From: Moniliella sp. 'wahieum'
Lineage: Eukaryota
Direction: 5' to 3'
DNA: 64,000 bases
Assembly: GCA_003971905.1 (NCBI GenBank)
Contig: RSEE01000030.1
Location: forward strand, 372,001-436,000
The position numbers and the translations under genes were made by a program. A model generated the notes under the pieces. That model had not been told where the DNA came from. It worked only from the letters and a program-made list of their open reading frames with translations, and made no database searches. Positions 1 through 57,362 of this stretch are shown here, one piece after another (the first letter of the stretch is position 1; every line of letters begins with the position of its first letter).

Positions 1-1977
1 CACTTTGCGTCCCAGCCTCGACTTTGTGTCGCGCTGGCCAACCCAGCCTACATTGCCCATCTCGCCCAGCAGGGCTTTCTCCGCGACACCCGCTTCGTCC
101 GCTACCCGCCCCACCTGGACACCACGTGGCACACCCCGGAGTATGCGCGTTTCGTGCGCTACCCCTACGCTCTCTTGTTCCTCTCTGCGCTCCAAACCCA
201 GAGTTCCGCGCTGCCGCTGAGCGCGAGGGCTGGGCCGCCATGGCCCGCAGCCAGATGCTGGCCACTGGGCCGTATGGTTCGTTCCTGTCTCCCCCTTGCG
301 CCCACCGCCCCTGCTTGCTGACCCTAGCCGCCGCTCCTGTTGCCCCTGCACAGGCGCATGCCGGCGGAAGAAGACCAGCCCGAGGGGTCGTCGGCGCCGC
401 CGCCTGCCCTCGTCCCACCGGCGCCTAGTGAACACTGAGCTGAGTCTCACGTGCTGGGCGCGAATGCTGATGAGCTTCATCGCTGCGCGCAGCCCAAGGG
501 CCTGGCGTCGGGCGCTATCGGGCCGAGCGTTGTGGTAGATGGATGCCGGTCTAATAGGATGGTCACCAACAATCGATAACCCGAACGGCGCTCCGAGCCC
601 AAACCCGGTCTTCCCGCCTTCCGCGCTCTTGCACATGTGATGGCAGCACGTGGGGGGCGCGCCAAGGCACTGCGACTCAGGCGTCGTACTCACTAACACG
701 CCGTCCGTCGCACACCCGTCCGCTGTGCGCCAGCACGGGTGACGCTCACCCATGTCGGCCGAGTAGGGAATATCGGCCGGGGCTCAACTCACTAATTCAT
801 CAGTGAGCGATCCCAGAAGCGTCGCAGCCAAGGCTGAAGCTGGGCACGGGAAGGTTAGCCCAGCATTGGCCTGTCTTCTACTCTGCGTCTCGGCCGCTCA
901 TGGCCAGCAGCCGTCGCATGCTTGCTGACTCACGTGTTCCTTGCCTCCCTCAGGCCCCAGGCCGCACTAGTCACTACCTCACGCCGCTCCCTCTCTGGCC
1001 CCTCCCGCCCCCTCCCCTGCTCCTCCCCCGCCTCTCCACCCCTCAGCCTCGCCACTGCCACGCTGCCGGTGGCTCTCCCCGCGGTGCCGAGACATGGAAG
1101 CCGCCTGTCATGCTGTCAGAAGCTCAGCGCTGAGTCGCAGCAGCATGCTGGGGTGCCTCGACCTGAGGTCAGGTGCCTCTCTTGCCCAATCCTTTGCCCT
1201 GTCGTCATGTCGCCCTCACTGGCCACGCCGCAGAGCATCTACCAGCTAGCAGGATGAATTCATATTGGCCTTGAAGCTTGAAGCTTGAAGCTTGAATATT
1301 GAGTAGCTAGAAACTTGATCGACTTGATGTTGGACCCACTCTCGTGGGTCCTCGTCACCGGCCACTCTCGCTTCCCACAATCTTCGGCTATTTCTCTCTG
1401 GGCGCCTAGCGGAGGGGCTGGAGTGCAACTGCCCCTCTCTCCCCCCCCACCCTTGTTCCTGTCCATGGCCCAGGGAAAAAGCATGATGCATGAGGCGTGG
1501 CCATTGCTACTGTCACACTGCGCCCTCGGCGCCGGTCACATACACACCTTGCGCCCAGGCAGAGCAAAGCTCCTGCAACTGTCACTGTTGTCACTACAAT
1601 CCTCGCTGAGACAGTCTCCCGCGGCTCAGTCTAGGTCTGTGCCATAGTCATGGTTCCTTGAAGGGTAATGTAGGTTTTGAAGTACCTTTTCGTGCGCCAG
1701 GTCTTTGCTCCCAACAAAAGTCTCTGCTCCTCTTGGCACAACCACACCACCATTGCCATTTCCACTCCTCTGCAGGTCATGGAGAATCTTTGGCCTTTGG
1801 CAGGTACGCCTCTCCTCCCTCCAGGGAGCACGACGGGTGCAGAGGGTGAGGCGAGCTGTGTCCTCTCTCCTTGCGAGAATAACGCTGCTTTCGCCACCCC
1901 CTCCTTTCATCTTGGGCTCAACGGTGAAGACCCTCTTGGATCGCTGCACACCCGTCGCACCCAGACCCCTATCTTTC

Positions 1978-3745
1978 ATGGCCTTAGCGTCACCTGTTCC
2001 ATCGGCAGAGCTCTGGGACCCCAACAATGCCTTGGCCACGGGTGGGTTTCCGTCTCTTTCTCCTCTCTTTCAGCAGGAGCCACTTCAAGAGGTCGGAGGC
2101 ATCATGCCCTTCTCATCCGTCGAGAAGGAACAATTTCCTTCTCTCAGTGTCGGCTTAAGCCCTCCGAACTCGGCGACTTTGAAACTGTTTCCCCCGACAT
2201 CATCCGTTGGTCTCCCCTGCCTCCTATGCCGTGCAAGCTCCGCGCTCCCACCGATCGCACTTTACTCTCCCCACATTCCATCCCTATGATCACAAGGGCG
2301 CTCGGCGCCCCAAGTCTGCCTCGCCCTTTTCTCGGGTGATTGAATTGGCAGAGGGAAACCAACCGCTACAACCCCGAAATGCAGCCCCTCTTGGCGAAGC
2401 AAGTTCAAGTTCCTCGCCCGCCACCTTCGTCGGGCTGGACACTGCAGAGTCCCACATCGTTTCCGTCGATGTGCCGTTTCCCCTCTCGGCTGCTGATTCA
2501 AGAACCGCATTTGGGCCCGCCTCCGTACCTGTTGCGCTTGCCCCTACACTTGATATCGCAACCCTGCCGCTACCCCTGGCTGCCAAGTTGCCCTGTCCTC
2601 CTCCCAGGTCCCGCTGAAGGTACGAAGGACCCAAACACGTACAAACCTGGCACCAGTACTCGCGGCAATGGCTCAGTGCGTCCTCCTCCCTCCATCCAGG
2701 TAACTAGAAAGATGCAGAATATACTAACGTTTGTGTGGGCAATTCAAAAGGCGCTTATCAGTGACGCTGTCCCTCTGCTGCAAAACGGGGTACACTATAA
2801 CCTAGGGATCACAGAATTGAGTGATACATTCGTCAAGGTGTATTACACGGACGATGGGTGTGAGCCGCGTCTGGAGAACGGAATCAGTGACGACCCGTCA
2901 ATGGGTAAAGTCTACCTTGCCCCTGTGCCGTCGCGACGGGTACACTTTGCCCAGCAGCAACTCGACAATTTGTTGAGAACACTGCTCTTCTGTCGGGGGG
3001 CAAGCAAGGATTTGTGTTGGAGGACGTGTCGGATTGGGAAGAGCTAAAGGAAGAGTTGACGGCTTCTGGACCGTTCAAGACGGACCGTATTTGGGAAAAA
3101 GTGGTGGTCGCTAAGAAACGATGGGATGAGCAGAAGAATACTCATCGTGTCTGACCTGCTGCCGCTCGCGCGACTCGGCACCGTTGGTGGCGCATTCTTC
3201 CTCCTCTCCGACCGCATCTGCACCGCTCACGTCGTCGGCTCGGATCCTTCCCGATCTACGCCGCTTCCCTCGTGCCTGGGAGCACCGTGGGCAACACACT
3301 TGCCTTCAACTCTGCATCCTCCTGCCCGTCACGTACTGGTGCTCGGTATGAGGAACAGAGGGCCTACAGGCCTCAACTTGCCTCTTCTCCGAGCGTTGGC
3401 TGAGCGGTGTACCTGCCGTACCCGTGTCACGGCCAAGGTGCGTACGGACCGGCGTGGGGTCTTGGTTTCCGTCACAGATCGGCAGGTAGGATGTGCACCG
3501 CGCCCACGGATCGCAAACAGAGAGCCATGGTAAGCAAGTTTGTGCATCAGTTGGCCGCCGATCAACTCGATCTCGCCGAAGTCCAAGCCGTCATCAAGGT
3601 CATCCTTTCTTCCCCGCTGCTCTCGGCCATGACCGGCACTACTACTCGGAGTGGCTCTCGTCTTCCCGCTATGCGCAAGTCCTACGTGCAGCGCAGGTGC
3701 GCAAACAACACACTGCTAGCGCCTGATCTCATACCGACATTATAG
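1978..3745 (+). CDS. Hypothetical multi-exon orphan protein; boundaries approximate
   Basis: Chain of + strand ORF segments (1705-2289, 2207-2617, 2340-3047, 3126-3533, 3407-3745) with protein-like composition, e.g. ELSDTFVKVYYTDDGCEPRLENG. A GTAACT..CTAAC..AAG intron candidate lies at ~2700-2749. No family recognised. Confidence 0.4.
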
Positions 3746-4285: not shown

Positions 4286-7200
4286 TCAATTTCCTGGCTG
4301 GTGCAACACCGTCGACTCCGCTGCATAAGCGGCAAGCCCATCGACCCTCATCCCTCCTTCCTGCGCCTGAGAAGGCTCGGTCCTCTCCATCGCGCCAAAT
4401 GCCTTTAGACGGAGACGGGCCTGGGCCTTATCCTCCTCCGGCGCCGATACGTCAGCAAGGATCTTTTGGGCCCGTTCAATCTCTTGGTCACGTTGGCGCT
4501 GCTGAGCGGTCTGCCGCTTGCGCATATCCTCTTCGAGTAACCGCTGGGAATGCTGCTGATATGCCAGCGCCGACGCGGTCTGGCGTGCCGTCTCCCCTTT
4601 CCCTTTCACCAGGGCCTGGAGAGCTTGGATCTGCTGAGAAGTTCGGCAGCCGCCTTTGTTTCGATGCCATCACCGTCGCGTGGTTCCGGTTCAACTCTGC
4701 CAGCTTGGCGAAATGGGTAGAACGAAGACTAGGCCCCTCGTTACGGATGGCCTCCAGCTCATTCTTGGCCCGGACCAAGCGCTTCTCCGTTCGAGCCACT
4801 TTGGCTTCGACTTGTTCAATTTCACGCAAGCCGGCGTGGCGGTCGTGTGTTGACGGAGTGTCTCTTCCTGGCCTCGCAGGGACGCTTGCATCTTAGGCAC
4901 CTTTCCCTCGGCTGTTGTAGCCACCTTGCTTTCCTTCTCGTACACAGACCACATTTGCGCCAACTGGGAGGGGGAACAGTCGAACTCGGATGGCTCGAAC
5001 AGGTTACCACGGTTATCCACCTGATGGCCGTCGCAATCGAACCATGGCGAAAGACGAATATCGTTGAGAAGCAAGTGGCTCACGAGTGGGTCTGCCCGTA
5101 CGACCAAAATCTCCCTCTCCGAGTCATTCACATGCACCGAGAGCAACACCTTATCTCTTGAACCGTCGAGCGCAACGTTAGCACTGCTTTGGGGCGATTG
5201 AACCATCCCAAATCGCAGACCCAGTCACTCTTGGTACGTAAAAGTGCATCCGGAGGGGGCGAGGTACCCAAGATGAGACTTGACAGTTGGCTCTTCAGAA
5301 AAGAAGGCACTTGCGCCGCCTTGTCCACCCGGTCGGCAATGAAGTGTCGTGCAACTTGGGAAGATTGGCTATATAGGCGTTTCGAAGAATTGAGACGGTA
5401 GGGAAGAAGGGCCGTCGGCATTGGAAAGACAGGGGGGAGGGATGCCGCTGCAAATCAACGTCAGTATATCATGGGCGGGCCAGAATGGGAAGAGGCAAAA
5501 CTCACGTGGCCGAAGAAGTGCAGCCTGCTCTTGTTGTCCTTTTAGTACCAAATCCAGCTCGTCTCCACTCTCCAATCCCTCAGCGAGTGCCTGGGAATCA
5601 AAGCCATCAGGTACCCTGAGGAGGGATATCTTAGTCTCGGGCGAAGGCGTAGGTAAGATCCAGGTACCCACACGGGGGTACATTCACTGGTCTTCCCGCA
5701 TATGGCGCACCAGTGTGAGCAACCGGTGGGTCGGCAACACCAGGAAAGGTAGGATCGAATGTAAATTTGCCCGCAGAGGGTATAAATATATCCGACCAAG
5801 TAAGCTTCCGAACTAGCTGGGCCACAGACGAAGAGTCCGCGTCCTTGCGGAACTTTAGGTGTTGTTCTAGCGGCGTGGTCTTGTGGGTCTCATTCCAACT
5901 CACCAGTTTCGGAGAGCGAGAAGGTTTGGGGCATTGGGGGGATCAACAGGCGTAGATGAGCCTGTCGATGGGTGGGGGTCTAGGGGAATGAGATGCCCCA
6001 TTCTGAGTTGCCAGGTTTGGCACCTTCGGTGGCGCTGTGGCGGAGGCCAAATTCGTCCCCGGATGGGAGACAGTGCTGTTCTGGGCTTTGGTTGGTGGGG
6101 CTGAGACTGAACCGGCAGAGCTGGAGGAAGCTGCTCCTTCAGACCTTGAGGCACCAGTCTTGGCGGGGGGTGGGATTGCCGATGAAATCTGAGGTTTAAT
6201 ATCCAAATGTGTAGAGGATGGCCTCGGTTTCACAGACCGCGAGTCGCTAGTTTCTTGCTGCTGAGGCCGCTGGCAAGATGGGTTTGACATCCCGTGATGC
6301 AGTAGCTTGATTCGCGTTCTGAAGCGTAGGGCGAGCTTGGGCACGGAGGCTGCCAGTGAAGTCTTGTCTGTGGTGGGTGTGGGCTTGATATCCGAGGGCT
6401 GAGCTGAAGGCCCTGCAAGTACAAGCTTTGAGCTCAATCCTCCGGTTGAGTGGCGGGCTGCTGGCTTAGCAGATGTGGCAGGTGGTGGGCCAGAAACACG
6501 TGCCGCCTCCGACGTGCTCATGGAGGCACGCTGATGAGTAGGATTAGAGCTAGAAGCTGGTGCGAGGGGTGAGGGTAGAACTTTCTTCTGGAGGTCGGGT
6601 GGACGGAGGGAAGGGTGTTTCCTTTCGTAGAATGGGGGAGTGAAGGGCCAGACCGATTTAGTGTACCTGATCCCAAAGATCGACGAGTGCCGGGAACCTC
6701 GACGTGAGGGCGGTTGACAGGGGCCGTCCGATTGATTTGCCGTTTAGGGATAAACGCAGCAGCCCGAGCGGGGTTCGTATAGGGCTTACGGGGCGGAAGA
6801 TCCTGGTTTGAATTTGACGAGGACTGCTCTGTTGCCACGGGAGGACGTGTTGGGGGAGGGACTGTTTTGTCTTTACCAGCGGCCGGATTGGATGAGGGCT
6901 GCCCCGCCGCCACGGGAGGGCGGGATGGGGGAGGGGCGGGCCCTTTATCTTTCGCAGGGGTTGGATTGGACGAGGGCTGCTCCGCCGTCACGGGAGGGTG
7001 TGGTGAGGGGGGTGCGACTGCTTTGTCTTTTTTCCGTATGGGTGGCTCTAGGCTGGCGCCACCATTCGAGGAGCTGGGCTCAGACGAGCGAGGAGGGACA
7101 GTCGCAGCCAAAGGCGTGGCACTTGGCCGTGGGTGGTCCGGAGCTGTACTGCTTCGAGTTGGTTGGGTTGGCGGCTCGGTGTTGGGCGTCGATGACGGCC

Positions 7201-8296: not shown

Positions 8297-9808
8297 GGTG
8301 ACTACAGCGTCGCCGACGCCGATCCCGAGGCGAAGGGCAGCGACGCGATGGTGGTCGCTGTGCTCCGGCCAAGTCCCAAGCCAGCCAGCAGCCGACGCGT
8401 GACGGCGGCGTGCACCACCGCTGGACATCCTGCATCCCGCCAATTCCGCCTTCGCTGCTTACGTCAGTATCGATCCCCCCCCCCCTCCATGATGCATGAG
8501 GTGTCGCCCCAATTTCGGCAGCCACCGTCTACTGCCTCGTCGTGCCATGCGAATACGCTAATCAAGGTACTGCAACATCACATGGGGCAAGATGAAGCTT
8601 GAAGCTTGGAGTAGAGCTTGACGTTTTCAAAGTCCCATGTTGCTGTCCCATGTTGCTCGTCTCCACGAAAACAGTCAAAAAGATGCCAGGGTGCTGTAAA
8701 AACAGGATGAGATCGATGAGAGGGAACAATGTGTTGGGACCCGTGGTCCCGTACTTAGGCCAAGGTGCCTCATCACCCTTCACCCCGATTTGTCCTCCCA
8801 AGCTCCACGTGTATACTCAGGCTTGTTTGAACCCTGTCTCTAGGTGTGGACAAGGCTTATTAGACCTCCACCACGACCACCGCGATTGCATTGCTCTACA
8901 CTTCAGAGGTTCTTCGCCCAATCCCTTGGGCTCCTCCGGTCTTACACAATGATCGTGGCGTGGGGTGTTATATATAGGTTGAGGCTACACTCGCTCTCAT
9001 TGGGAATTTCGCTACCTCTCGCGCGCGTCGCCTTCCCCTCCGCCTGTCTGCCTTGCTCCATGTGCCCTCGGTATTCTTTTTACATCTTTCCCCAACGGTG
9101 ACGACTATATTTTCCGCCCTTGTCTACTCAATAACGAGCTGAATGGGCCTGCAATGGATTTGCGTCTGTAAGTCTCTGTATAGCAACCGCTAGGTGTCTC
9201 TTCGAGTTGAACATTGAAGCTAATACCACTACTTGAGGAAAGAGAATTACACCCATCTCTTCTGAGAGTGTGGCATGAAGAAGGGGCCCGAGTAGGAGTA
9301 CCACATCATGTGCATCATGAGGGTAACCGCGAGTACCGAGTGCTTTAGCTCCTGTATAGTAGACCTGTATACGAGTGCATATATATCTTGCTAGCGAGCG
9401 GTGCATGGGACAGTGTTCCACACAACGTGCCTTTCTTCCGCCGCTCGTAACACGTAGACACTGGCCTGGTGCATATATAGGCGGTCCCCGCTGCGCCGAC
9501 AACACTACCGTGGCGCAAAGCCCTTGCGCCCTTTAGTTTGTGGCCTTGCGCCCTTTCGCAATGTACCGCCGCCGGACGGCTGAGCTTCCTGGTTCTCGGC
9601 GGCTGCCCTAGCTGTCGGACTCGATATTCTCTGCTTTCCCCACCACCGCCACCCCCTCTTCTTGTCTCCCGCGTCTGGCACGCTGTCCCTGCCCCTTCGC
9701 CCATATTGTATCCACAACTCTCAATCCTATCCCCTGTACCCCTTTCTATCGTCCGTGCCCCATTCCCTCTAATCGCAGCCTGGTACTATCCCATACCAAG
9801 CATAAAAG

Positions 9809-10811
9809 ATGCGCATCAGCTTCTTCCTTCTATGCCTCTTCTCCCCTGCTGTGTGGGCACACAACAGCCCCTTCGTCCTCGGTCACCTTCCCTCATGGTC
9901 CCCGCCGCTGCTTCGTCCATCGCCGCTGAAGCCTCGGCTTCACTCGCGAGTGAAGCATCGGCATGGCGTGCTCACGCTGCATCATACAAGGCCTCCCACT
10001 ACCGCCAGTGCTTCAGGTGCGGTGCCCTCTGATGATCCCGTCAAGTCGTGGTGGGCCCACGCTTCTTCCTACAAGGCTGAACATTATCCTTCCAGCGCCC
10101 CAGCTGCCGCTTCCTCGCTCGACCCGGTCAAGTCGTGGTGGGACCACGCCAGGTCTCACTCGAGGAGTCTGGCACACAAGTCAGCGGCCTCGGCGCTGCG
10201 TGCATCGAAATCGCAGCAACTTGCCTCCCTCTCGTCAAAAAAGGCAATGGAAACCGTCCCTCACATTGAGGAACATTCGGATGCTGCACAACGGTTTCTG
10301 TGCCCAATCGCAAGAAGCCTTCCTCCTCATTTGTTGATGACCAACCCACCACAGTTGGTCCTTTGCATAGCCGGAAGAGGCCTTCATCTTCTTTTGTCGT
10401 TGACCCCCCCACCACTGTTGGCCCTCTGCACTCGCGCAAAAAGCCTTCCTCCTCCACTGTCGATGACCCACCCAACCACAGTTGGCCCTGTTCCCTCCCG
10501 GAAGAAACCCAATTCATACGTGGTCCATGACGCTCCCACCACGGTTGGTCCTTTGTCCTCCTCCCGCAGCCTACACACGACTTCGTTAACGACCCCGCGA
10601 CAACGGTTGGCCCGCGTCCTACTGAGCCCGCCAAGGTCGATCCAAGCGTGACGGACCCAGCCAAGATCTCTTGGCTTTCCCATGCTGCCTCCGTCTCCTT
10701 CTCCCGGCCCTCAAGTCGGCTGACGCAGCCGCTTCTGCGTGGCGTGCGCATGCGTCCAAAGCCCGTCTGTCGGCAAGCGAAGCCGCCAAGTCGCTCGCAC
10801 CTTCGGTGTAG
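9809..10811 (+). CDS. Predicted secreted, repeat-containing Ser/Ala/Pro-rich protein (frameshifted in this assembly)
   Basis: Signal-peptide-like start MRISFFLLCLFSPAVWA-H. Repeats of type (S/K)xW(R/W)xHA and 21-aa RK(K/R)PSSS..D.PTTVGP are spread across frames. The last segment ALKSADAAASAWRAHASKARLSASEAAKSLAPSV ends at TAG 10809-10811. Confidence 0.7.
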
Positions 10812-18452: not shown

Positions 18453-19538
18453 GGCGCATCTTCCCCCCTCTGTAGTAGCTGCTTGCTGGCTTCCTGGCCG
18501 CCATGTGCCGGGGTGAGGCGGCGTAGTGGAGGGTGCTGTATGCGATCTGTATGGGGATCCTCTGTGGCCGTTGCTCCACTGATGAAGTTTTCTTTCTTTG
18601 TTTGCTTAGGCTGGGATGGGATGGGGTGTGCGACGCAAGGCAGAGACTAAGGATGGCAGAGAGCGAGGGGGGGCGATCGGGCGACAGGATGATGGATGGG
18701 ATGATGTGCACTACATGCACGTGGCTCCACACGCGCATGCAGCTTTGCGTGTGCTGCAGCTGCATTTGCGCTCGCTCGGCAGGCTGCACTGGCGCGGTGG
18801 CTGGGCGGCGGCGGCGGCCCAAGTAGGACAGGCGGCTGGCGTGCGTGCTCCGCATGCCCCTGGCATGCGACAGCTGTCGGGCCACAGTGGCCGCGGGGGG
18901 CGCATGCGCATGCGCAGCCGCCGCTGCCTGCCGCCGCCCGCGCGAGGGGAGCGCCGGTAGCACTGGCGTCGCCGGTAGGGCCACCTGCTCGCGGCTGGGT
19001 CCTGCGCTAGGCCTTCCTCTGCCCTCTGCGCAGCTCGGCGGCAGTGCGTGTCCGTCGGCGCACACAGGCGCAGACACGCCGCCCCGCCACCCCCCCGCAG
19101 TGGGTGCTGCGGGCACTCGGGCGCACGTGCCACCACACCAACCCAACACCAGCGCGCGAGCACCGCCAGGGCGCGCCACAATGCCCCCCCTCCATGGCCC
19201 AATCCAAGGGGGCGCGGGGCGCAGCACCACCCCATCCTGCATCCACGCTGCCGCTGCCACGTCACACGGCCCACATCACCCCTCGCGCGCCCCTCACGCG
19301 TCGCCTGTCGCCCCCACTCCGTCACGCGCCGTGGGTGGATGCTTCCCCAGGCATCACACAGCAAACAGCATCCTCACGCTCACGCGTCACCCACCCCACC
19401 CCCTCCGCCGCCGCTGCGGTGAGCGTCAGCCTTCAGCACGGCGTCTCGCGCGGCCCCTGCGCCGCCAGCCGCCCTTTTCAGCCCGCCTCTGGCCACCGCC
19501 TGCGTCTCTGCTCCACCACCCCTCCCCCCCACACCACC

Positions 19539-21202
<1,664 letters not shown>

Positions 21203-23980: not shown

Positions 23981-24063
23981 CCAACCAAACCACTCCAAAC
24001 CAACCCAAACCAACCCAACCCAAAGCCAAACCAAACCAAAGCAACGCAACGCAACGCAAACCA
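23981..24063 (+). repeat. Compound pentanucleotide microsatellite (CCAAA/CCAAC/GCAAC)n in the ADE2 3' region
   Basis: Sequence ccaaccaaaccactccaaaccaacccaaaccaacccaacccaaagccaaaccaaaccaaagcaacgcaacgcaacgcaaacca. Confidence 0.85.
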
Positions 24064-24917
24064 AGTACATACAGGACAGATGCGGCTTTTCGGGACACGG
24101 TGTTGTGCTTGTCTTCGTGATCAATACTATACTTGTCCTACTAGATGGATGAAGCTGAAGAACGGTGAACTGATATGATCCACCAGTCAAATCGCATTTC
24201 TTGCATCGCACGTACTACGCTCGCCGTCCGAGTCATCAGCTTGCAGCGCTGGGATCTGTATCTGAACAAGAGGGGCAGGGTACCTGGTCAGCTTACGCCT
24301 AATTTAACGTAGTAGTGTAGCGTGTATTCCACAATCTGCTCGTGACCGCCCCCCCCCGGTGGGTCCTCGAGGGCACATGATCGCATCCCCCACCTTCTTG
24401 GAGTCGATCACGAAACGGTGCGGAATCCGCATCCTGTGGCTACAATCCGCCTGGGGCGCAGGCGCGTCGCGAACAGTCGAGCGTACGCATGGATAGGATG
24501 CACGAGAGAGACCGAGGAGAGAAGGAACACTGGTGAATGGAATGTCGACTATAGTACCTGTAGTCCTCCCATCAATCAACCAATCAAAGTTCTCCACACC
24601 CATACCCCAATCGAATCGGAGCACCGTCGGCTCGAGACGCCCAGTCCCAGCCGCAGCGCACGCCGGCTCGTCGAGGACCATGATGCATGAGGAGTCAAGT
24701 GGCTAGAGACTGCGTTGCCCGTGACGGTTTGTTCTGCTAGCAATGCCTGGGCTATTCTCTTGCTCGCCCGCGGCGGAGCGTGAGTGGTTAAGGAATGGCC
24801 TGTCGCTGGGGTGCACGGCTGGCAGTCAGCGTGGTAGGAGGGAGTAATGTGGACTCAGAGGAGTACTCAGACCAAGTACCGATGCACCGATGCAGATGCA
24901 TAGGGTTGAACGTTGGT

Positions 24918-24962
24918 TGAACGTTGAACGTTAAACGTTAAATTTTAAACGTTAACCGGTAA
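24918..24962 (+). repeat. 7-nt-phased TRA-N4 array with 7 units
   Basis: TGA ACGT TGA ACGT TAA ACGT TAA ATTT TAA ACGT TAA CCGG TAA. Confidence 0.9.
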
Positions 24963-31050: not shown

Positions 31051-31114
31051 TGAACATTGAACGTTGAACATTGAACTTGAACGTTGAACGTTGAACTTCA
31101 ACATTGAACGTTCA
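31051..31114 (+). repeat. TGA-AC(G/A)T heptad tandem array in the PIN4/VCX1 divergent intergenic region
   Basis: TGA ACAT TGA ACGT TGA ACAT TGA ACT TGA ACGT TGA ACGT TGA ACT TCA ACAT TGA ACGT TCA. Confidence 0.9.
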
Positions 31115-31981
31115 GTTGAACCGTTGAAGTTGGATGCGGTGGATGACGTTGGTGGTGGATGATGCTGATGGGTGATGCATGTGTGGCATGTGGCCAGGGA
31201 GATGCGTGGGGGCTGATCGAACTGATCGATGAGCGCAGGGCTGAGCAGGGGGTGACATGTGATGGGTGTGATGGGCGCCGATGGATGGCGCGTGGGCGGT
31301 GGATACACGACCCAGGCAGGGCTGGCCCAGGTGGCCCAGGCACCGCAGATAGCAGCGCCCGCCAGCAGCCAGGCAGGCCACCCACGCGGCCGCAAGCACG
31401 GCATGTCCGGCATGGCATGGCCCTCGGGCTTTCTGCTCTCAGCCATCGGCCACCGGCCACCTGCATGCTGCCCTGCCCCCTGCTGCGCAACTGCGGCCTG
31501 CTGCCCCTCTTCCTGCCAGCCAATGCAAGGGCCATTCCCAGCCCACCCCCCCCGCACTTGCGCAGTGCAACCGTCCGTGCTCGCACTCAGCCAGGCGCGC
31601 TGGCGAGCGCCCACCGAAGCGAGCGACCCGGCGCAGCGCAGAGCTGCGGCCACGCGGCTGCGGCCCACTAGCACTGCGCCCGACGCTGAGGCTGAGCGCT
31701 GACTAGCTGACTGACTAGACTGCAGCGCACGCTGGCTCGCGCCCCCGCCTTCTCGTGCCTCGCTGGGCACCAGGCGCATCACTCTCTCCCCGTCACGCGT
31801 CACACCACCCTGCCCTCGCCCGCCACCATCTTCCCCATCCGCTTGCCTCCCTCCTCCTTCCTGCTGCTGCTGCTGCTGCCGCCTCTGCCCCTTCCCCCCC
31901 GCCCGCCCGCCCCCCCCCCATCCGGCACCATGCCGCTGCCTGCGCTTGCGGATGTCTTCCACCGCAGCCGCCCTGCCCGCC

Positions 31982-33539: not shown

Positions 33540-34890
33540 CGCCCTCGGAATAACTCCCGCGCTGGTGTGCTATTCTTCAAGGACAATTTCTTCAATGGAC
33601 ACTGGTGGTGGGTGGATTCCCCTCCTTTGGAGGCCCACCTCTCCCTCCCTCTCTTTCGTCTGGTGGAAACTTCGCTTGCATTTGTTCTTACCCTTGCGTT
33701 TCCATACGCCCCTCTTCTGCGGACCTTTCTTATCTGTAATTGTACATTTCCCTCTCTCTCTCGTTTTCTGCATCTGCCCTCGGTGCACAAACAGAAGACG
33801 ATCTATACCTACTCTGCTGCATTGCTCCTTTCCTGGCAAATGCAACGAACAAGGTGAGGGGCACATATGCCGTTTCTTCACCTTCCTTGGGTCATACGGT
33901 CATTATGCATGCATTATGCGTTTTCACATCAAAGCGTGCACATATCCCCTTTCCGCGCCTCAGACTCATACACCGTAAGCCTCAGGACGATTGCGCGCCG
34001 GGACAAGGATCTCTGCCCCTTGATCCGAATGCATAATCCATGGCCCACAGATGAAAATGGGAGGCGCGTTTCCCGGCGTATATACGGTTTTATGTCGCCG
34101 GTAGGGGGAGTGATGTAGCGTGGCAGTTGGCACAAGGTAACGGAAACCCAGGAGTGCACAGGCGCACGGACCAAAAGCCAAGAAGTAGGAGGGCCGTTGA
34201 ATGTTGAACAGGCCAGGTCTGGGTTGGAGGAAGCTGGAGGGCGTACATACATATCAGCTGCAGGCCTGCAATCATGGATCAGATCTCAGATCTAGGGCCT
34301 CGGCCTGCTTCGGTCTGCTTGGTTCTGTGAAAGAAACGAGACGGTGTAGTACGCCTTTTTGGACGAGGCCGACGAGGCCATGAGAGTGGGGCAAAAAGCA
34401 TCGCCGGCAAAGCTTAACTACGCGGTGGGGGGTGGTGAGAGGTACTGAGAGGCACTGAGAGGCACTGGGGCCGAGGCCTGAGGGAGGCCTCTGCGAATTG
34501 GAATGGGCACGCCGCGCCCCCCGGTTGGTATTACTTACAACTGGGGCAGCCGAGTGTGTGCCCCCCAAACAGAAGAGAGAGTCAGCTGACTTGGTCTCTT
34601 TCATTCACGCCAAGTCGCAAGTGTGAGCCAATTATTGATTACCCCGCCCGCATTCAGAAAAAGTGGCGCTTTTGGGACCGCACTAGTGGGGTGTCCTTAT
34701 GTCCTTTGGCGTTAGGCCTGTGCGGCGGGTGACCCCCGTCGGTTACCCCGCCTTGGAGATTGAATATTGAGCTCGCTGTGGCGTTTAATGTTTTTAATCC
34801 CCACACCCCGCTCATCACGTCCTCCTTCACCACTACCCACACACACCACTACCCATCACCATCACCAGCAATACCCCTTTCCCACACCGC

Positions 34891-39430: not shown

Positions 39431-40290
39431 GACGCTGCGCGTGCATCCCGTGTTGGGAGACAGTTGGATGAGGAGGAGTGGGTGGTTCGGATTTCAGTGG
39501 TACTCTTCGTGGTGACGGCGATGGAGGGCCGTTTTGAGAAGAGAACAGTGAGCGGAGATGATGATGATGAGGGGGTGGAAGAAAAAGCTTATTGTACAGT
39601 CGGAACCTGATATATACACAGCAATGCCCCTAATACAGGGCGGAGGCAATTTTGATGTTTTGTTGATGGCTATTATGTGACGTTTTCATTCTCTTGCGCT
39701 AGTAGTATCAAGCTTCCAAGCAAAATCCAGCCGCTGAGTGTTAGCCCATCGCATGTACGACTCGTACTGGGCGTACTGATATTGCTCGTTTTGAACGAGA
39801 ACGTTCGCACCTGAGATGCGCAAACGAAAGGGATTATAATGATAAGCACCCCCCCCTTCTCGTTCCACCCAGTACGAAGTGTACAGACCTGTCTGAGAAA
39901 TGGTTGCTTAAGGGGGAGATGGGGGCGGCTGAGCGTTGAGAAGGGATTGTGCCCAGCACTGCCTCTCCACACACCCTTTTTTGTCCTCAGCATGTTTGGC
40001 CGGACCCTCGGGGTGCGCCACAGCTACCGCTGTACGCGTTGCGGTGCCCGCGCAGCCTAACCCAGCACAACCCACTGTACAATCAGCACGTGGCCTATAT
40101 GTACGGTGACGAGGTGACCGATGTTCATTCAGTCCATCGAGTAAGTTCAGCACGTTCATCGAGTGTTTATCGATCACCATCCCCCCCGCAGCTCTCAATT
40201 CTTCTAGTGCGGGATGCCCACACTGCCGAACGTGCCCTCCGCAGAGGCACCGATCATCCAAGCAGGATGTATGACTAGTGTGACCTAGTG

Positions 40291-40318
40291 CTAGTGACCG
40301 GTGACCGGTGACCGGTGA
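40291..40318 (+). repeat. (TGACCGG)n heptad array
   Basis: CTAG TGA CCGG TGA CCGG TGA CCGG TGA. Confidence 0.9.
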
Positions 40319-41203
40319 CCCCGCACGTTTAATAAACTCGTGCTTCTTATCGCGTACCACGCCGCGCGATGATCGGTATCGGTGACGCGGATGATGCATG
40401 ATGAGATCGATGACGGATGGCCGATGTCATCCCTGCGAGCTGTTGCATAGCTGAGATACCTGTGCGACATCAATGGGAGCATTCGTAGGCTGTCCCCCTG
40501 CTGCCCTAGCGCTTCGTCACTGCCCTGCCCTGCCTCCTCCTGGCTGCGCAACTTTCTTTGGCTCCGCTCTCTTCGCTTCCTGTTGGCTTCTCCCAACCAC
40601 CTCAGCTGCTCCTGTATGTTTCATAGCTTCATCCCCCTGTGTAGTCGAGAGGACGGCTCCGTCTCTCCCTACTCATGGTACTGAGTACTCACTGAGTCCC
40701 GCTCATCGGCCAACCAGTTAATTAACAGCCCGAGCACCTGACCCCCACTGCTGCGGGTGTGAGCTGTTGGAAGCGCGGAAATGCACATCATTCTTTTTTC
40801 GTTTTCATACTTCTCTTCCAACAATCTCTCTTAGTCATTGTGGAAAAAGGCGCAACTGCCAAGATCGTATGTCTCTGTCCGCGCGCCTAGGCATGTCTTG
40901 GCCAGCAATAAAACCTGGCGAGGCTGCAATTGCGCCCAGGCTGAGCGAAACAAGTGCCCGGAGTGATCAGCTAGTGATCTCGAAGCAGCCCTGGAATCAA
41001 GTTCGGCCTGCTTGACCACTGATCTAAAAGCAATGCGCCAAAGAGAGTCTTCATTCGATCTAGCTATGTTCGATAGAACGGATGACACCATTGCCCCTAC
41101 AGAGTGCCGTGTGCATTATTACTAGGATATAAAATGATGAGAGTACAGCGAAGCATCGTGTTGGAGCTTTGGGGGTCCGTAAACGCGGATTATGGGGGCG
41201 AAA

Positions 41204-43055
<1,852 letters not shown>

Positions 43056-46000
43056 ACTTGGTACAGGGCTTCAGGGAGAGAGGAGTCCTGAGTCGCGTGG
43101 AAAGGCGGGGGTGGTACTGTAACTCCTGGTGAAGATGGGGTGGCGAGGTGGTGGAGGGAAGCGGAGAGAAAAACAAGGAAACGATGAGGGGAGGGGGCTA
43201 AAGGGTTGCTGAGGATGGACAGGGCTGTCCTGGCTTGCTTATGGGGCGCCGTATCGGCAGCTTACACGCTTACGCATCTGGAGTGACTAGTCACAATGAC
43301 TAGAGTGAGCGAGCGCTGAGCGAGCACCGCTCCAACCCGAAACAGAAATCGGCATTGGGGACCTGAATCGTTTGAGGCCATCTGGGCGAAGACGGGCACG
43401 GGGGAGGTGGGCCGCATCTGGCGGGACCAGCAAGGCCGCGGGGCACTGCTCTGCACGGGACCTGTCTTCCCCGGCCACCCCAGCTTCTGGATATCAATGT
43501 CCGGTGACCGCTGACCGGTGACCTCATCGAAGCAGTGCTGCCGCTACTTGTCATCATGCATCATGCATCATGTTTCCCGCGGGGGGAACACCCTGCGTAG
43601 CGGGCAGCAGCAGGCATGCCGCCTGTGTTCGGCCATGCCAGTCCAGACCCTTGGGGCCACGGTGCAGGTGTGACACATCCGCTCTGCGCCCGGCACTCCC
43701 CCCTGCGTGTTGAAGCACTGGCCGCAGACGGATTGGGAATTGTGACTCCGGAGGATTTGAGAACGTCATCGTGGCAGCTGCAGACTGCGGGGGGTGGCGC
43801 TTGTGCGCATCGCGCAAGATCAATTCACTCAAACTGCCTCATCGATCATCGTCATCGATCAGCGGTCACTCATCGATCTCATCTCGGACCAGGCCAGTTC
43901 TAGTTCAGTGTTCAGCTGTTCAGCTCTCCCCTTGGCCTTAGGCTTAGGCTGCCTTATCGATGAGATCAACGATCGATGACTGTCTTTGTCTGAGATCTGA
44001 CGATGTTGTGACGATGCCGCCGGGTAGCTTCAAGTGCATCATGCATCGAGGTCATCAGCTCTCAGCGAGTGTGCTCAGCATGGCCCACCAGGCCCCAGGG
44101 CCCACCTAGTCCCCTGCTGGTCTGCTCACATGTCACACATGTCACACCGGTCCGACTCGTGCGCCTCTCGCTACAGGCCCGTGTCTCCACATGGACACGT
44201 CTCCGTTTTCTGTCGTCGGAAGGTCTGAGATCTGGTGCGTTAACCTACCAGCAACTAGTAACCGGCAACTGGTCAGCCCGTGACATCATTGATCATCATC
44301 ATCCATCATTAATCATTCAGAGAGAAGAATGCCCCCACGGTGTTACTTGTTAAACAGGTTAGCCTGGTATACCTTCCTTTTTCTTTTCATCAGTACTAAA
44401 ACAATACCCCTCTCCTAGCACTACACTATTATGATCATTGTCGGTAAGCGAGTGACCAGTGCCCTCTGTGAACGTTGAACGAACGTTGTTTTGAACGTTT
44501 TGAGAGAACCAACTCATGATTCATTCAGCATGGTCCCTGCTGTTGCACGATAGATGAATGTCGATGATGATGCATGATGCCATACTCGGTTCAGAGTCGG
44601 TACTCCCGGAGCTCAGGCCCTTCAAGCATGAATCTTTTGAAGTTTAAGTAAACTCAATGTAAGCTTGCCACGTAAAGCCACCTGGGACCATTTTCGCCAC
44701 AGAAGAGGTTTAGCCCCCCCACACCCGCCCAGAACAGTGGTTCAAATTGACGGCGACCTCCGATCACCGTCGGCCTCCTGAAATAAGGCCTCTCATCAGT
44801 ACTCAGTGCATCCGATCTCGCTTCTCACCGATTTCCCTCACTGGCTTCACCACATCCCCGATCCCGACGGGCCGTGTGTGGAGGTTGAACTTCAAACTTC
44901 AACGTTGAACGTCGTGAGACGTTGAGCTCGTTGAGAAGGCTTGTAAAATGTAAAAGGCCACTTGAGTTTTCGCGGACATTTTCTAAGGCCTAAACGTACT
45001 AAGTTTTTAAGCCACAGAGAAGACTGAGATCTGAGACTGATTAAGTGGACCGGGGAGGGTACCTAGAAAGGTCGTTGCTGACGCAAATTTGCGTGCGAGC
45101 TTTTGCTTCAGACTTCGTCAGTGGTGTGGGTCCTCTTCCGTTAATATTCATCCGCACACTATCGTTGGACGTTGGACGTTTGCCTGCCACCACCGTTGGG
45201 GCCACGAGCCCATGCAGGGCCTCGTTCCTCCCCAGCAATTCAAATCTGGGGGTGGAAGTTATGTCCATCTTCTGTGAGCCGTTGGGACTGTCAAAACTAT
45301 AGTAACTGGTGCCCCACCATTGGAAGACGTCCTGATGGGGCTATTGTTGTATCCGAGCCCAGGTCTCTAAAGCGCGTGAGCCTGACAGGCTAATGACTCT
45401 CCAATACGGGGCGCAATCATACTGTGTATAACATACTGTGTATAATATTCAGTGTTGTCGTGGTGGTCGTAACCATGTAACCGGTAAACCCACAAGCAGG
45501 AACCCCCTAGAGGGATATCGGCACGGGTCGTGGGCCGTCTGGCTGATGAATAATAGATGGCTAAACAAAGTGAGAAAATTGGATCTCTGTCATAAGTATG
45601 TAGATCGGGGAGAGATGAGTGAAGCTTGTGATGTGCGCGACTGCATATATGAAGCTTGAAGCTTGAAGCTGAAGAAGGAGGGGGAACTAACGTTACGTTT
45701 TTTACGAAGAAGCTTTAGGAGAGAGGGTGCGAAAAGAGAGATAAAAACTTTGGTTTTTTGGGGCTTTGGGTTTTCAAAACTCTCTAGGAGAGGGCTAGGT
45801 CGCACAGCACTAATGAGCCGCTCAAGTGTTCAAGCTATATGGGAGCCCATCTTGGACCTGAGCGATGAGAGCCTGGGTCGGCTGAGCGCTTTATAGCAGC
45901 TGATCCGATGGATATGTTGTTGGTCGAACTAACAAGCCTAAAATGTATGTAGGTAGTATGGTACATAACAACGTGTAGGCATGTACAGTGTTCCTAACCA

Positions 46001-46593
46001 GACGTCAAACCAGGCGTCAAAAAGTGTTAATCATCTCAATGCAGTAGCAGTGTGGTGGGGGTGACATGTTCCGTTTGCGGATGCGGTGATACTGAGACAT
46101 GTCTCAGCGAACGCGAGGAACAGTAATAAAAAAGCGAAGTGCGTTATAATACTCCCGAGAATACGTACCAAGTTCTCTGCAGCACCTACCAATGCTCATC
46201 GACATCAGCATCTTAGCGTGTGCGCTTAGGGGTATAGGTGGGCGTAGCACTTGCTGGCACCGCTGCGACGTCGATTAGCTTGTTCAAAGAGACTGTGGGG
46301 CAGTGGAGTGAGTAGGTGACTGTGGCGGGAACACGTGGTCACACTGCGGTCACCGGAGCAATCACCGGTCACCGGTCACTAGGTCACTGTGGAAGTTGTC
46401 CGTTGCAGGTTGTTCCTAGTGTTATTCCTTTCTTCCAGAGAGAGAGTAAATACCCCCCATGGTTCGTACACGGCGCCAGAGTTCAAGCTTAAGCTTTAAG
46501 CTTCAAGAGACAGTGTCCGTGTATTGTAATAAGGACACCATTACAGTACAGGGACACGAGAAAAAACGTCACAGCAGAAGCGACTCAAGAGCC

Positions 46594-47160
46594 TCAATGG
46601 AGGTGGATGGCCGCAATGAGGTCGAGCACTGCGCTCTTGAGTGCCCTTGACCTTGATTGCTTGACTCTCGTTACGTTGTCCATTCTTGATAGCTCCTGTA
46701 TGTGTGTGGCCCTTGTACCCCCTGTCCTTTCCCTAGTGCCAGGATGCCGTCTTTTCATCTTCATCTTCGTATCAACATCCTCTTTAAGTGCTGCAAAGAA
46801 CTTCCATCTGCTGCGCTTTCTCTTCTCGACTTTCAAGTCGTAGACAAGGGCGTGGAGGTGTTCTTGTATACTACGGGGCGGTGCAATCGATTGGTGCTTT
46901 TCATCTATCCGGTTTCCATATACAGACTTGTTTGCGGGCGCTGCTCTCCCTTCAGCCTTCAGCTTCAGCTCCGACCTGTTCAACAAGTTGGCATACGCCA
47001 CACGGCCTCATCTTCGGCTTGAGTCCCACTAACGCGACTGATTGATCTCCTCTACGTGATTTCTCAAAGAGCTGCGCCAAGATTACTGGCAATGTTGGCC
47101 TCACCACACAGCCGCCTTGAGCCAAGGCCCGGAGCGTACAAGAAAGAGAGTAGGCATAGA
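46594..47160 (-). CDS. Possible small basic orphan protein
   Basis: 135-aa K/R-rich ORF 46594-47001, with a hydrophobic upstream fragment in another frame. No homology recognised. Confidence 0.25.
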
Positions 47161-47205
47161 TGATTCCGGCATGCGAAGACAGCAATAGTAAAATCCGCCT
47201 CGCGC

Positions 47206-54480: not shown

Positions 54481-55371
54481 GGTGGAGGCAGCGCCGGGGA
54501 TGGCGGGAGCAGACGCAGACGCAGACGCAGAACAGCCAGCAACCGCAGCGGCGATGGTGGCTGTGGAGCAAGGCAGGCGCCCCAGCCGGTGGATCGCTGG
54601 GCGGCGTGAATACCCCGGGGCCGCCTGCAGTCGCCCCACCCGAGGCCCACGCGCACCGCCCAGCACAGCCCCCCTGCTGGGCGCCACTTGGCGCCTCGCC
54701 ACGTCGACAGTCCAAATGCCCAGCCACCGCTGATTCGATCACATGACCTCGATTATCCCCTGCCATCTGGCGATCTGCCGAGCTAATCATGCTGGATCGA
54801 CCCATCCAATTTCATGTCCAGTCGGTGCGCGGCCTCATCGCCTCATCCGCCGCATCGCCCCCCTCCAACGTCGCACGTCGTCCTGCTCCACCTGAGGATC
54901 ATCGGCCACTCACAACAGCAGCACCACATTCTACCGCATCGTTGCTGCTTAACGGCCCAAGGCCTCAAAGGGATCCATTGTCGTCTCCCTGCAGCTGGCG
55001 GCTTTAAGAGGGGCGCAATCAACACACAGCCCATGGAGGCGCTCATCCCTACACTCGGTGGCCCACCGTCTCAAGAGAAAAAATACTGGTGAAGAAGTGA
55101 GGCCGTAGTGGCCGCCGGTGAGGGTCTTATAAAATGGCTAGAAAATGGCACAAAGCAACGATTGGCCTCCATCTTCGTTTGGCAGGGGCAGTCACTAATG
55201 AAGCTAGTAACCGGTGAGCCAAGAACGCGCTCCACATCCCTCAGGTCATCCCGACTCAGCCCAGGGCAGCCCATTGGAGCACTAGGCCATTGTTCAAGTG
55301 GGGCAGGCGGCGGAATAATAGCTGGGGCAAGGCGCGGCAGTGTAACCCTACTTCCAACCCTAGTTTTATGC

Positions 55372-55378: not shown

Positions 55379-55577
55379 CTGCTGCGGATTTGCTCTTGCG
55401 TGGGGTTGGCTGGAGAAGCACAGGTCGAAGCTAGTTGGAGCAGCAACTCTTGGTTGACCCCATATCGAACCTGTAAGAACATCCCCTGGTTCCCTGCTGT
55501 GCTTGCGCTTGGCGATGGCCACGCAGTACTTGTGGCGATCGATGCGGATGCTGACTTTTACGCCCAGATTACCCAAC

Positions 55578-56510
55578 ATGAGTGAATCTCTGCAATTCAA
55601 GGGCAGCCTTGTCGGCCACAAGGGCTGGGTCACGGCCATCGCGACTTCGAGCGAGAACCCTGACCTGCTCGTCTCCGCCTCGCGCGACAAGCACGTCATT
55701 GTGTGGAACCTCAAGCGGGGTGAGGACGACATTGGCTACCCCAAGAAGATCCTTCACGGCCACAACCACTTCGTTTCGGATGTTGTCCTTTCGTCGGACG
55801 GCCAGTTTGCGCTGTCGTCGTCGTGGGACAAGACGCTGCGTCTGTGGGACCTCAACTCGGGCAACACTGTCCACCGCTTCGTCGGTCACACGTCGGACGT
55901 TCTGTCAGTCTCCTTCTCGGCTGACAACCGCCAGATCGTGTCGGCTTCGCGCGACAAGACGATCAAGCTGTGGAACACGCTTGGCGAGTGCAAGTTCAAC
56001 CTGACCGACAAGGGCCACACCGAGTGGGTCAGCACGGTCAAGTTCTCTCCCAACCCGCAGACGCCCATCATTGTGTCGGGCGGCTGGGACAAGGCTGTCA
56101 AGGTGTGGGACCTGTCGCAGATGCGTCTCAAGGCCAACAACTATGGCCACACGGGCTACGTCAACACGGTCACCATCTCGCCCGACGGTTCGCTCTGCGC
56201 CTCGGGCGGCAAGGAGGGTTCGGTGATGCTTTGGGAGCTGTCGGTTGACAGGCACCTGTACTCGCTCGAGGCTGGTGACAATGTCAACGCGCTCGTCTTC
56301 TCGCCCAACCGCTACTGGCTGTGTGCGGCGACGTCGTCCTGCATCAAGGTCTTTGACCTCGAGTCGCAGTCGGTTGTCGACACGCTTGTGCCCGAGATGG
56401 AGGGCAACGGCAAGGCCCCCGAGGCTCTCTCGCTGGCCTGGTCGGCGGACGGCCAGACGCTCTTTGCTGGCTACTCTGACGACGTGATTCGCGTCTACTC
56501 GGTTCTCTAA
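55578..56510 (+). CDS. ASC1: RACK1/Asc1/Cpc2 G-beta-like WD40 ribosomal protein, 310 aa, uninterrupted CDS
   Basis: Motifs [78 protein letters not shown] and [11 protein letters not shown]. Confidence 0.98.
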
Positions 56511-57362
56511 AGCAAGGACGGATGAGAAGCTCTCCATGTCTCGCTGTCGACGCTGTGCTCCGAGCGGAGCAACGCCAACTTGTTTTGATCCGCCCCGCCC
56601 CGGTCTGCATCCTCAGGATGTGTTGCTTTCAAGTCGAGCCGTCCCGGTGTGCGGCCCGGTGGGCGTGTGACTCAAAAGGCGCAGGCACTCTGTGAGCCTG
56701 CGGTGGGTCGACCGTGACCGGTGACCCCTCTCAATTGCATCGATTGATCACTCTCACTCTGCTTTGGGCGGTGGATGCGCGACGCGTACTAGGGCATGCT
56801 AGGCTAGGTGCGGTGGGCGGGATGGGTAACGGAAGTGGCACGATAGCGACAGGGTATAGCGCGGCAGGTATGACGTCGTCGCGGCGCGTCACGTGAGGCA
56901 TAACGTGCATAACGCGAACGAAGGAGCTGTGGCGTTGCGGCGGGGAATTGGCCCCGGAGGTGCGACGACACGCCAAAAAAGACGGCAAGACGCAGCCAAG
57001 TCCGCCCCCAGTGCTCGCTCCCCGCAAGGCTGGGCACTGTCGTGCCGGAACGGGTTGCGGTTGTACGTAGGACACAGCAAACCCCGCCTGCCGAGAGCAG
57101 CTGATCAACGAGCCTGGGAGCGAGTGTAGGCCTGGGGGAACTGGGGGCTCAGCGCTTCGCATGTCCCCGCATAAGCTTTGCCAACGTTATGATGCGTTGG
57201 GGGAGGAACTATGCACACTATGTGGCTCAGGGGGCTGTGTGTCGCCTCGTGCTTGTCGCTCTGCCACGTACCCTCTCGGGGGTTCTCGGAAGACCGTAGG
57301 CCTGCCAAGGCATATTCTGTTTCGCTTCTGTATGGCGTCCATCTGAAGTGGTAGATCCCCCT

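Follow-up and report, generated by a model that had tools for sequence, protein, structure and literature searches.

The 64-kb stretch of DNA analysed here (contig RSEE01000030.1, positions 372,001 to 436,000; hereafter the window, numbered from its first letter) carries, mainly in non-coding DNA, dozens of short motifs in which two T-N-A triplets lie 7 nt apart around a self-complementary tetramer. Taken together, the window, 80 unrelated control loci and the literature provide evidence that favours these T-N-A motifs being mutational scars, not regulatory signals. As to their origin, the best explanation, to which we give even odds, is that they are excision scars of a hairpin-forming cut-and-paste transposon making 7-bp target duplications centred on T-N-A.

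Structure and distribution of the T-N-A motif

An earlier note on this DNA had described T(G/A)A triplets separated by palindromic 4-mers, and the 10-mer was found at all 32 of the positions that it listed. At 30 of these the triplets are indeed direct repeats (those on the minus strand reading TCA...TCA), but the other two are inverted TGA...TCA forms, namely perfect 10-bp palindromes at 40682 (TGAGTACTCA) and 43284 (TGACTAGTCA). A search of both strands for TRA-N4-TRA returned 122 matches, 53 of them with a palindromic spacer. The corresponding figures from 200 dinucleotide-preserving shuffles were 56.6 +/- 7.0 and 3.3 +/- 1.7 (maximum 8 for the latter), which bears out the proposed excess of palindromic spacers. 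The spacers are varied: the strict form uses 14 of the 16 possible palindromic tetramers, CTAG and TATA being the missing ones. By class, the spacers comprise 53 full palindromes (3.4 expected), 16 with only the inner pair complementary (9.8 expected) and 24 with only the outer pair complementary (11.2 expected). Among trinucleotides W in the arrangement W-palindrome-W, TGA/TCA (41 versus 1.6 expected) and TAA/TTA (7 versus 0.17) are enriched and no others are; other combinations of word and spacer length were also negative. The TGA-TGA distance of 7 occurs 86 times versus 31 expected (z = 9.1). The motifs form 40 loci if joining is limited to same-strand matches at a distance of exactly 7 nt, or 36 if matches within 25 bp are merged.

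The palindromic tetramer consists of the reverse complement plus the direct copy of the dinucleotide that flanks one T-N-A. The resulting core, the 11-mer xyT-N-Ay'x'-xyT-N (primes marking complements), occurs 65 times versus 1.55 expected, and replacing its T by A, C or G leaves 3, 3 and 3 occurrences, which is chance level. Its centre base is C in 31 cases, G in 28, A in 4 and T in 2, and the next base after the core is A in 49 of the 65. The centre base is copied, not complemented, with 29 TGA..TGA and 12 TCA..TCA pairs against 3 and 3 of the inverted forms. The motif had also been described as A-N4-T palindromes with one purine between them; the hexamers are real, but the separating base can be any base and is identical on both sides. 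Thus A-palindrome-T hexamers are flanked by GG 57 times (17.7 expected), CC 34 times (15.6), TT 16 times (4.5) and AA 12 times (4.9), while complementary flanking bases stay at chance level. Odd palindromes centred on A-N-T showed no enrichment, and T-N-A-centred odd palindromes outside the motif, the half products, were also at chance (178 versus 175).

At 30 of the 40 loci the 7-nt period continues for 2 nt or more into one flank only (left at 17, right at 14, both at 1), where about 5 of 40 would be expected by chance, and beyond these 2 nt the flanks are at background. Most period-7 runs holding an A-palindrome-T hexamer are short: 44 of the 57 span only 11 to 13 nt, and 13 reach the 14 nt of two full copies. 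Spacer decay amounts to about 7% per site, and decayed variants, including ACGT changed to ACAT, are in excess.

On a crude codon-usage map of our own, trained on ten Pfam-supported open reading frames (ORFs), 35 of the 40 loci are non-coding, in line with the placement claimed earlier, and the five exceptions all lie in low-scoring segments. By the same crude map, palindromic spacers make up 48 of the 97 in non-coding DNA and 5 of the 25 in 'coding' DNA. The density is about one scar per 0.9 kb of non-coding DNA, but the loci are clumped: 20 of the 40 lie at 40-48 kb, mostly in a gene-free stretch beside a zinc-finger gene, and several other non-coding stretches hold none. This stretch of about 4 kb (43200-47200) lies between a C2H2 zinc-finger gene on the minus strand and an aminoacyl-tRNA synthetase gene, has a G+C content of 0.49-0.51 at 44-47 kb versus 0.59 overall, and contains 17 of the 40 loci (43.2-46.6 kb). 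The orientation of loci is mixed inside one intergenic region. Positions 30940-31300 form a strand-asymmetric G/T-rich stretch with a plus-strand TGA every 7 to 12 nt and many short degenerate local repeats, which adjoins, on the upstream side, plus-strand coding-map segments starting at about 31.7 kb.

The control consisted of 80 loci (640,328 bp) around relatives of the ADE2 gene on other metagenome contigs, where 74 of 1087 spacers were palindromic (6.8%, versus 6.25% by chance), that is, no enrichment. Because these contigs show the chance fraction only, the palindromic-spacer feature appears to be specific to the lineage. In the literature the grammar was not found described; of six 14-letter repeat words sought, two were present, in unrelated papers only.

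Fit to a proposed 7-bp duplication with hairpin opening

In the mechanism that we propose, a symmetric 7-bp staggered cut centred on N of an empty site nnTNAnn would generate a 7-bp target-site duplication. Exit of the element would leave a hairpin at both flanks, as in hAT, MULE, Transib and RAG, and a host nuclease would open these hairpins about 2 nt from the tip to give 4-nt self-complementary overhangs. End joining would then keep one overhang and discard the other with total length conserved, and two bases would therefore be lost and two P-nucleotides gained, so that a palindromic tetramer separates two T-N-A triplets at a distance of exactly 7 nt. Each scar would recreate two T-N-A targets, and events at an edge would add units whose spacer mirrors the neighbouring flank. 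Replication slippage would copy existing units and, together with repeated events, produce short arrays, some with mixed spacers. The likeliest agent would be a family of cut-and-paste transposons with 7-bp duplications that favours certain intergenic regions and was not seen in the window.

For an empty site xyTNAzw (bases p1 to p7) whose hairpins are nicked k nt from the tip, the self-complementary overhang measures 2k nt, and the model product is p1..p(7-k), then the reverse complement of p1..pk, then p1..p7, or its mirror, 14 nt in total. With k = 2 (k = 3 gives identical letters) the product is xyTNA-y'x'-xyTNAzw and its mirror xyTNAzw-w'z'-TNAzw. This exact 14-nt pattern was found 49 times, at 28 loci, versus 0.2 expected hits. 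Adjacent intact 7-mers (k = 0) were found at 10 loci versus 0.4 expected hits, and the k = 4 product at 4 loci versus 0.28 expected hits; k = 4 or 5 turns the first centre complementary, which gives the inverted form seen at 40680 and 43282. Repeated nnTNAnn 7-mers with gaps of 0 to 4 nt numbered 14, 6, 6, 1 and 4, versus 0.07 to 0.2 expected per class. The model also predicts products that do not keep the total length; for gaps of 1, 2 and 4 nt, the 6, 6 and 4 repeats compare with 0.17, 0.2 and 0.07 expected, and the gap bases are the reverse complement of an adjoining copy end in 5, 4 and 2 cases, respectively. When all exact repeats of 7 nt separated by 1 to 5 nt are considered, 9 of 53 have a T-N-A centre, where chance is estimated at about 4% (roughly 2 of 53).

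In the 28 empty sites so inferred, positions 1, 2, 6 and 7 favour no particular base, as expected of a loose transposon target. Their centre is G or C in 26 of 28, and 24% of intergenic T-N-A sites have A or T there. By reasoning through symmetric duplication lengths of 3, 5, 7 and 9, only 7 should reproduce the letters. These data show that each founding event adds 7 bp at nnT-N-Ann, with a centre that is usually G or C. As in excision footprints, direct repeats of the target-site duplication are retained (the gapped nnTNAnn 7-mers; identical centres 41 versus 6), and the added bases repeat the flank beside them in palindromic form (30 of 40 flank matches; 28 loci with k = 2). Mixed-spacer arrays are also explained, because a new event at an edge would copy the flank next to it in mirror form; the final unit of the array at 24946, TAA-CCGG-TAA, has cc after it. 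The scars thus behave like hairpin-type excision footprints, which need not be those of hAT itself. The loci and their variants are as follows (+ and - give the strand; lower case marks inserted or flanking bases).

1272-1302 (+), array of three TGA-AGCT units, then TGA-ATAT-TGA; period-7 run 1270-1296
1484-1493 (+), scar, full form CATGA-tg-CATGAGG from 1482; fits k = 2
8490-8499 (+), scar CATGA-tg-CATGAGG from 8488
8593-8602 (+), scar TGA-AGCT-TGA-ag, right-flank type
8706-8721 (+), variant GATGAGA-tc-GATGAGA, intact 7-mers plus 2 P-like bases
9304-9319 (+), variant CATCATG-tg-CATCATG
19380-19389 (-), TGA-CGCG-TGA without 2-nt flank match, in a low-scoring 'coding' segment
24681-24690 (+), scar CATGA-tg-CATGAGG from 24679
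24918-24962 (+), mixed TGA/TAA array, spacers ACGT, ACGT, ACGT, ATTT, ACGT, CCGG; last unit matches right flank cc
30058-30067 (+), scar GGTGA-cc-GGTGAGT from 30056
31058-31094 (+), degenerate TGAACGT array with CpG-decayed ACAT units
31223-31232 (+), TGA-TCGA-TGA without flank match
31253-31262 (+), TGA-CATG-TGA, flank match of 1 nt only
31693-31702 (+), scar GCTGA-gc-GCTGACT from 31691
31698-31712 (+), variant GCTGACT-a-GCTGACT, 1 P-like base
31793-31802 (-), scar CGTCA-cg-CGTCACA from 31791
33901-33918 (+), variant CATTATG-catg-CATTATG, 2+2 P-like bases
34279-34288 (-), scar TCTGA-ga-TCTGATC (minus strand) from 34277
34761-34770 (+), scar ATTGA-at-ATTGAGC from 34759
40167-40176 (-), TGA-TCGA-TAA without flank match
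40295-40318 (+), array of three TGACCGG units; period-7 run 40294-40320
40392-40401 (+), scar TGA-TGCA-TGA-tg
40680-40697 (+), ACTGAGT-actc-ACTGAGT, containing inverted TGAGTACTCA; fits k = 4
43282-43295 (+), inverted form AGTGACTAGTCACA; fits k = 4
43512-43521 (+), scar TGA-CCGG-TGA-cc
43554-43570 (-), array of TGATGCA; period-7 run 43552-43572
43839-43861 (-), two TGA-TCGA-TGA units in a degenerate TCA-phased array
43991-44000 (+), scar TCTGA-ga-TCTGACG from 43989
44126-44146 (-), scar TGTGA-ca-TGTGAGC (minus strand), overlapping variant TGTCACA-ca-TGTCACA
44306-44315 (-), scar AATGA-tt-AATGATG (minus strand)
44469-44478 (+), scar TGA-ACGT-TGA-ac
44568-44577 (+), scar TGA-TGCA-TGA-tg
44796-44805 (-), scar ACTGA-gt-ACTGATG (minus strand)
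44984-44993 (+), TAA-GGCC-TAA, flank match of 1 nt
45025-45034 (+), scar TGA-GATC-TGA-ga
45141-45150 (-), TGA-ATAT-TAA without flank match
45478-45487 (+), TAA-CCGG-TAA, flank match of 1 nt
45650-45666 (+), array of TGAAGCT; period-7 run 45650-45670
46362-46388 (-), array of TGACCGG (minus strand), then variant GGTCACT-a-GGTCACT
46489-46505 (-), array of TGA/TAA-AGCT (minus strand)
55208-55217 (+), TAA-CCGG-TGA, flank match of 1 nt
56715-56724 (+), scar TGA-CCGG-TGA-cc
56899-56914 (+), variant CATAACG-tg-CATAACG

Some longer words recur among these loci. The 14-mer CATGATGCATGAGG is present without change in three mutually unrelated intergenic locations (1482-1495, 8488-8501 and 24679-24692); either CATGAGG was the target of three like events or the word has a function of its own. 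Another word, GATGAGATCGATGA, is found at 8706-8721, 40400-40415 and 43868-43883 (minus strand), and it parses as the 7-mer GATGAGA, two P-like bases and the 7-mer again, the second copy being altered at two of the loci. The densest region lies between two inverted copies of CTAGTGACCGGTGACCGGTGA, each about 21 nt long, which are 6 kb apart (40283-40320 and 46355-46400). Judged from their sequences, they are probably two independent arrays and not the ends of an element, because the similarity stops at about 21 nt.

Competing explanations and known systems

Several other geometries were tried against the motif and rejected. A mariner-like 3-bp T-N-A duplication with 2+2 bases of element ends does not account for spacers that follow the flanks and use nearly all dinucleotides. 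Scars of PIF/Harbinger elements, which excise precisely, leave the spacer unpredicted, and TGA triplets at a distance of 3 show only a slight excess (43 versus 29.6). An 8-bp hAT footprint of the form t2..t7-N-t2..t7 predicts two hexamers round one T-N-A and no palindrome, and its phase was found in only 5 of 57 runs. A single P-nucleotide with 1 base trimmed predicts many spacers with only the inner pair complementary and 6-nt repeats; 16 such spacers were seen versus 9.8 expected, one of them with the required structure. Both tip-to-tip joining of hairpins and paired nicks of the topoisomerase I type predict complementary centres, in contrast to the identical ones observed (41 versus 6). Simple 7-bp tandem duplication followed by erosion would demand, from the run lengths, far more decay than the approximately 7% per site of the spacers. 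The idea that the inverted TGACCGG arrays at 40.28 and 46.39 kb are the ends of one large element was likewise dismissed, as they have only about 21 nt in common. Finally, a 5-bp duplication (TNAnn) with two P-nucleotides gives the same letters but needs an asymmetric site and P-nucleotides always at one end; under this parse, P-nucleotides on the T-N-A end were found in zero cases, and on these grounds the symmetric 7-bp parse seems preferable.

The known systems resemble the scars in part. Hairpins in flanking DNA are formed by hAT, MULE, Transib and RAG, and their opening by host enzymes such as Artemis followed by end joining leaves footprints, according to passages of PMC5499845. Footprints of Ac/Ds are described in the text of PMC4561436 as palindromic copies of flanking DNA. 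Like such hairpin-type footprints (hAT, for example Ac/Ds, MULE and Transib) and the P-nucleotides of V(D)J joining, as those sources portray them, the scars keep the duplication copies and carry flank-templated palindromic bases, with one side trimmed and the other extended. Unlike them, the scars have an even palindrome that is not centred on a complemented base, and a single outcome (two bases lost, two gained) dominates at about 40 loci in 64 kb with the element not seen. PIF/Harbinger elements (Tourist, mPing) share the T-N-A target with any middle base, but the parts of PMC4561436 that treat them describe a 3-bp duplication and normally precise excision, as of mPing, through complementary duplication-derived overhangs; with a duplication of 3 bp, templating of the spacer by bases outside it is not predicted. 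Tc1/mariner and Stowaway footprints also show a duplication-palindrome-duplication order, but passages of the same source derive their palindrome from retained bases of the inverted element ends, which fix the spacer, whereas 14 of 16 palindromes are used here depending on the local flank. The closest match in duplication length, 7 bp, is found in Basidiomycota, in hAT7 of Pucciniales (rust fungi) and Kyakuja/KDZ of Agaricomycotina, as stated in passages of PMC12730594; the superfamily to which hAT7 belongs is hairpin-forming (PMC5499845). The scars are best parsed as a duplication of this same length. However, no such element or transposase was seen in the window, the passages of PMC12730594 do not report either group from Ustilaginomycotina, and neither its text passages nor its supplement gives their target consensus.

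A number of observations weigh against an origin by transposon excision. Among 181 ORFs scanned no transposase domain was found, no element with terminal inverted repeats and an nnTNAnn duplication was detected (3 hits among 1187 pairs were the arrays themselves), and dispersed repeats are lacking within the window. Ten of the 40 loci have no flank match, where about 14% is estimated from decay, and 10 of 65 core 11-mers have neither a trailing A nor a flank extension; together these somewhat exceed what decay and chance should give. The geometry also departs from that of hAT, whose known target is the 8-bp nTnnnnAn, not the 7-bp, T-N-A-centred nnTNAnn fitted here. The palindrome is even and centred between x' and x, whereas hAT cleavage, which we take to proceed as in Hermes, would centre it on one complemented base. 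Short gapped repeats with P-like spacers are generally raised 2- to 5-fold, and because this background is raised and the numbers are small, the gapped variant classes are suggestive only. One scar per 0.9 kb or so of non-coding DNA would imply very many events. Lastly, the letters of the main class would also arise from a 5-bp duplication with two P-nucleotides, and a host nuclease of equal geometry would leave identical scars.

Such a nuclease is the rival that survives best, although we consider it unlikely. Where intergenic chromatin is open, a host enzyme, for example a domesticated transposase or another symmetric one, would break nnTNAnn sites with a 7-nt stagger or with hairpin-capped ends, and end joining would follow. 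It accounts equally well for the whole of the sequence evidence on the scar grammar, neither element nor transposase was found in the window, and the loci cluster in few intergenic regions. On the other hand, a 7-bp duplication with kept copies is the classic product of insertion then excision, and a plain staggered break would usually reseal without a scar. We know of no such fungal enzyme, although no search was aimed at one.

Hairpin-prone heptamer microsatellites, in which chance fold-back proto-repeats expand and contract by slippage while template switching maintains symmetry, offer a rather improbable alternative. Arrays do reach 3.9 copies, the unit is self-complementary save for its centre, and short tandem repeats exceed shuffles 4- to 8-fold at every period. 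However, palindromic units are not favoured at periods 5 (23 of 99), 6 (4 of 62), 8 (0 of 10) or 9 (0 of 4), which, with only 13 of 57 runs reaching two copies, upholds the earlier view that ordinary slippage is insufficient. Unlike ordinary heptanucleotide microsatellites, most loci span 11 to 13 nt, below two copies (44 of 57 runs under 14 nt), and the unit is restricted to T-N-A plus a palindrome. A T beside the centre is required (A, C and G fail), A-N-T centres are unenriched, and TGA/TCA occurs in 5 of 19 non-palindromic heptamer repeats, about the chance level.

The earlier note had left two readings, a cis-element recognized by its symmetry and a lineage-specific mutational process. 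Our results support the second, in view of the flank-templated spacer, mixed orientation, decay and absence from the controls; a mutational process is favoured because the spacer is templated by the flank at 30 of 40 loci, which a binding site would not need. A cis-regulatory or chromatin element, bound by a dimeric factor at T-N-A half-sites 7 bp apart with the spacer read by shape, therefore seems quite improbable. It would accord with the clustering of non-coding loci upstream of genes, including the 17 at 43.2-46.6 kb beside the C2H2 zinc-finger gene, and with the recurrence of longer words such as CATGATGCATGAGG at 3 loci. Against this, 14 of 16 palindromic spacers are used and predicted by the flank, orientation is random inside one region, decayed copies are common, and 640 kb of other contigs show no enrichment. 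Compared with transcription-factor sites, the motif has no base consensus in spacer or flanks and its orientation is mixed. To our knowledge, no factor reads an arbitrary palindrome. The Ustilago bE/bW site, reportedly TGA-N9-TGA, resembles the motif in having TGA as a direct repeat, likewise in the non-coding DNA of a smut-like fungus, but it differs in spacing and has no symmetry rule for its spacer; in the window the corresponding TGA-TGA distance of 12 is not outstanding (41 versus 29.9, like other multiples of 3).

An assembly or base-calling artefact, suggested by so odd and lineage-specific a pattern, is scarcely credible, since the motifs lie in unique sequence, exist in many variants with ordinary point-mutation decay including CpG-type changes, follow flanking bases and avoid coding DNA, and we know of no sequencing error mode that does so.

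Genomic setting and implications

The window is eukaryotic, with a G+C content of 58.8%. Its genes are of the common housekeeping kind and encode a DEAD-box helicase, UDP-glucose pyrophosphorylase, a fused PurK-PurE (ADE2), 14-3-3, an R3H/RRM protein, a Na/Ca exchanger, an inositol polyphosphate kinase, the C2H2 zinc-finger protein, the class II aminoacyl-tRNA synthetase, LSM14, Sec1, RACK1 and SAPS. The closest named relatives of RACK1 are from Sporisorium, Moesziomyces, Malassezia and Ustilago (77-78% identity), and that of ADE2, in a search restricted to longer proteins, is from Tilletia horrida (59% identity). Judging from these two proteins, the source is a basidiomycete near the Ustilaginomycotina to which no named relative is close. 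Among metagenome fungal loci related to the window, none was closer than 61% ADE2 identity.

Other repeats were also observed. Tandem repeats at 6808-7030 (78 bp, 2.9 copies) and 10309-10552 (63/127 bp, 2.9/1.9 copies) lie inside long ORFs without a Pfam match, which may encode repeat-containing proteins. A CCAAC/CCAAACC-type repeat of period 5/10 with about 8 to 12 copies (23981-24064) directly follows the end of the ADE2 frame, and homopolymer-like tracts of C or G, 14 to 26 nt long, are located at 19872-19886, 29571-29584 and 31894-31919.

A bolder extension, which we put forward only as speculation and think doubtful, is that an active hairpin-forming transposase or a derived host enzyme repeatedly cuts nucleosome-free intergenic DNA at nnTSAnn, so that scars seed scars. 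If true, this enzyme would be a lineage-specific generator of new non-coding sequence and of T-N-A-phased promoter stretches such as those at 30.9-31.3 and 43.2-46.6 kb, and some recurrent words, CATGATGCATGAGG for example, may later have been co-opted for regulation.

If the motifs are excision scars, they would reveal, in a fungal lineage considered transposon-poor, a transposon family (or a nuclease) whose 7-bp target is centred on T-N-A. They would also provide a natural record of hairpin opening in this fungus, about 2 nt from the tip, and of end joining with one overhang kept, with dozens of readable repair scars of one fixed geometry in a single 64-kb window. Excision scars would then make up a measurable share of intergenic DNA, at about 3-4% of intergenic TGA/TCA sites (28 to 40 loci per 1070). 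For motif searches the finding carries a caution, in that what looks like a 'symmetric code' in promoters, even a strongly enriched one, can be the mark of a mutational process.

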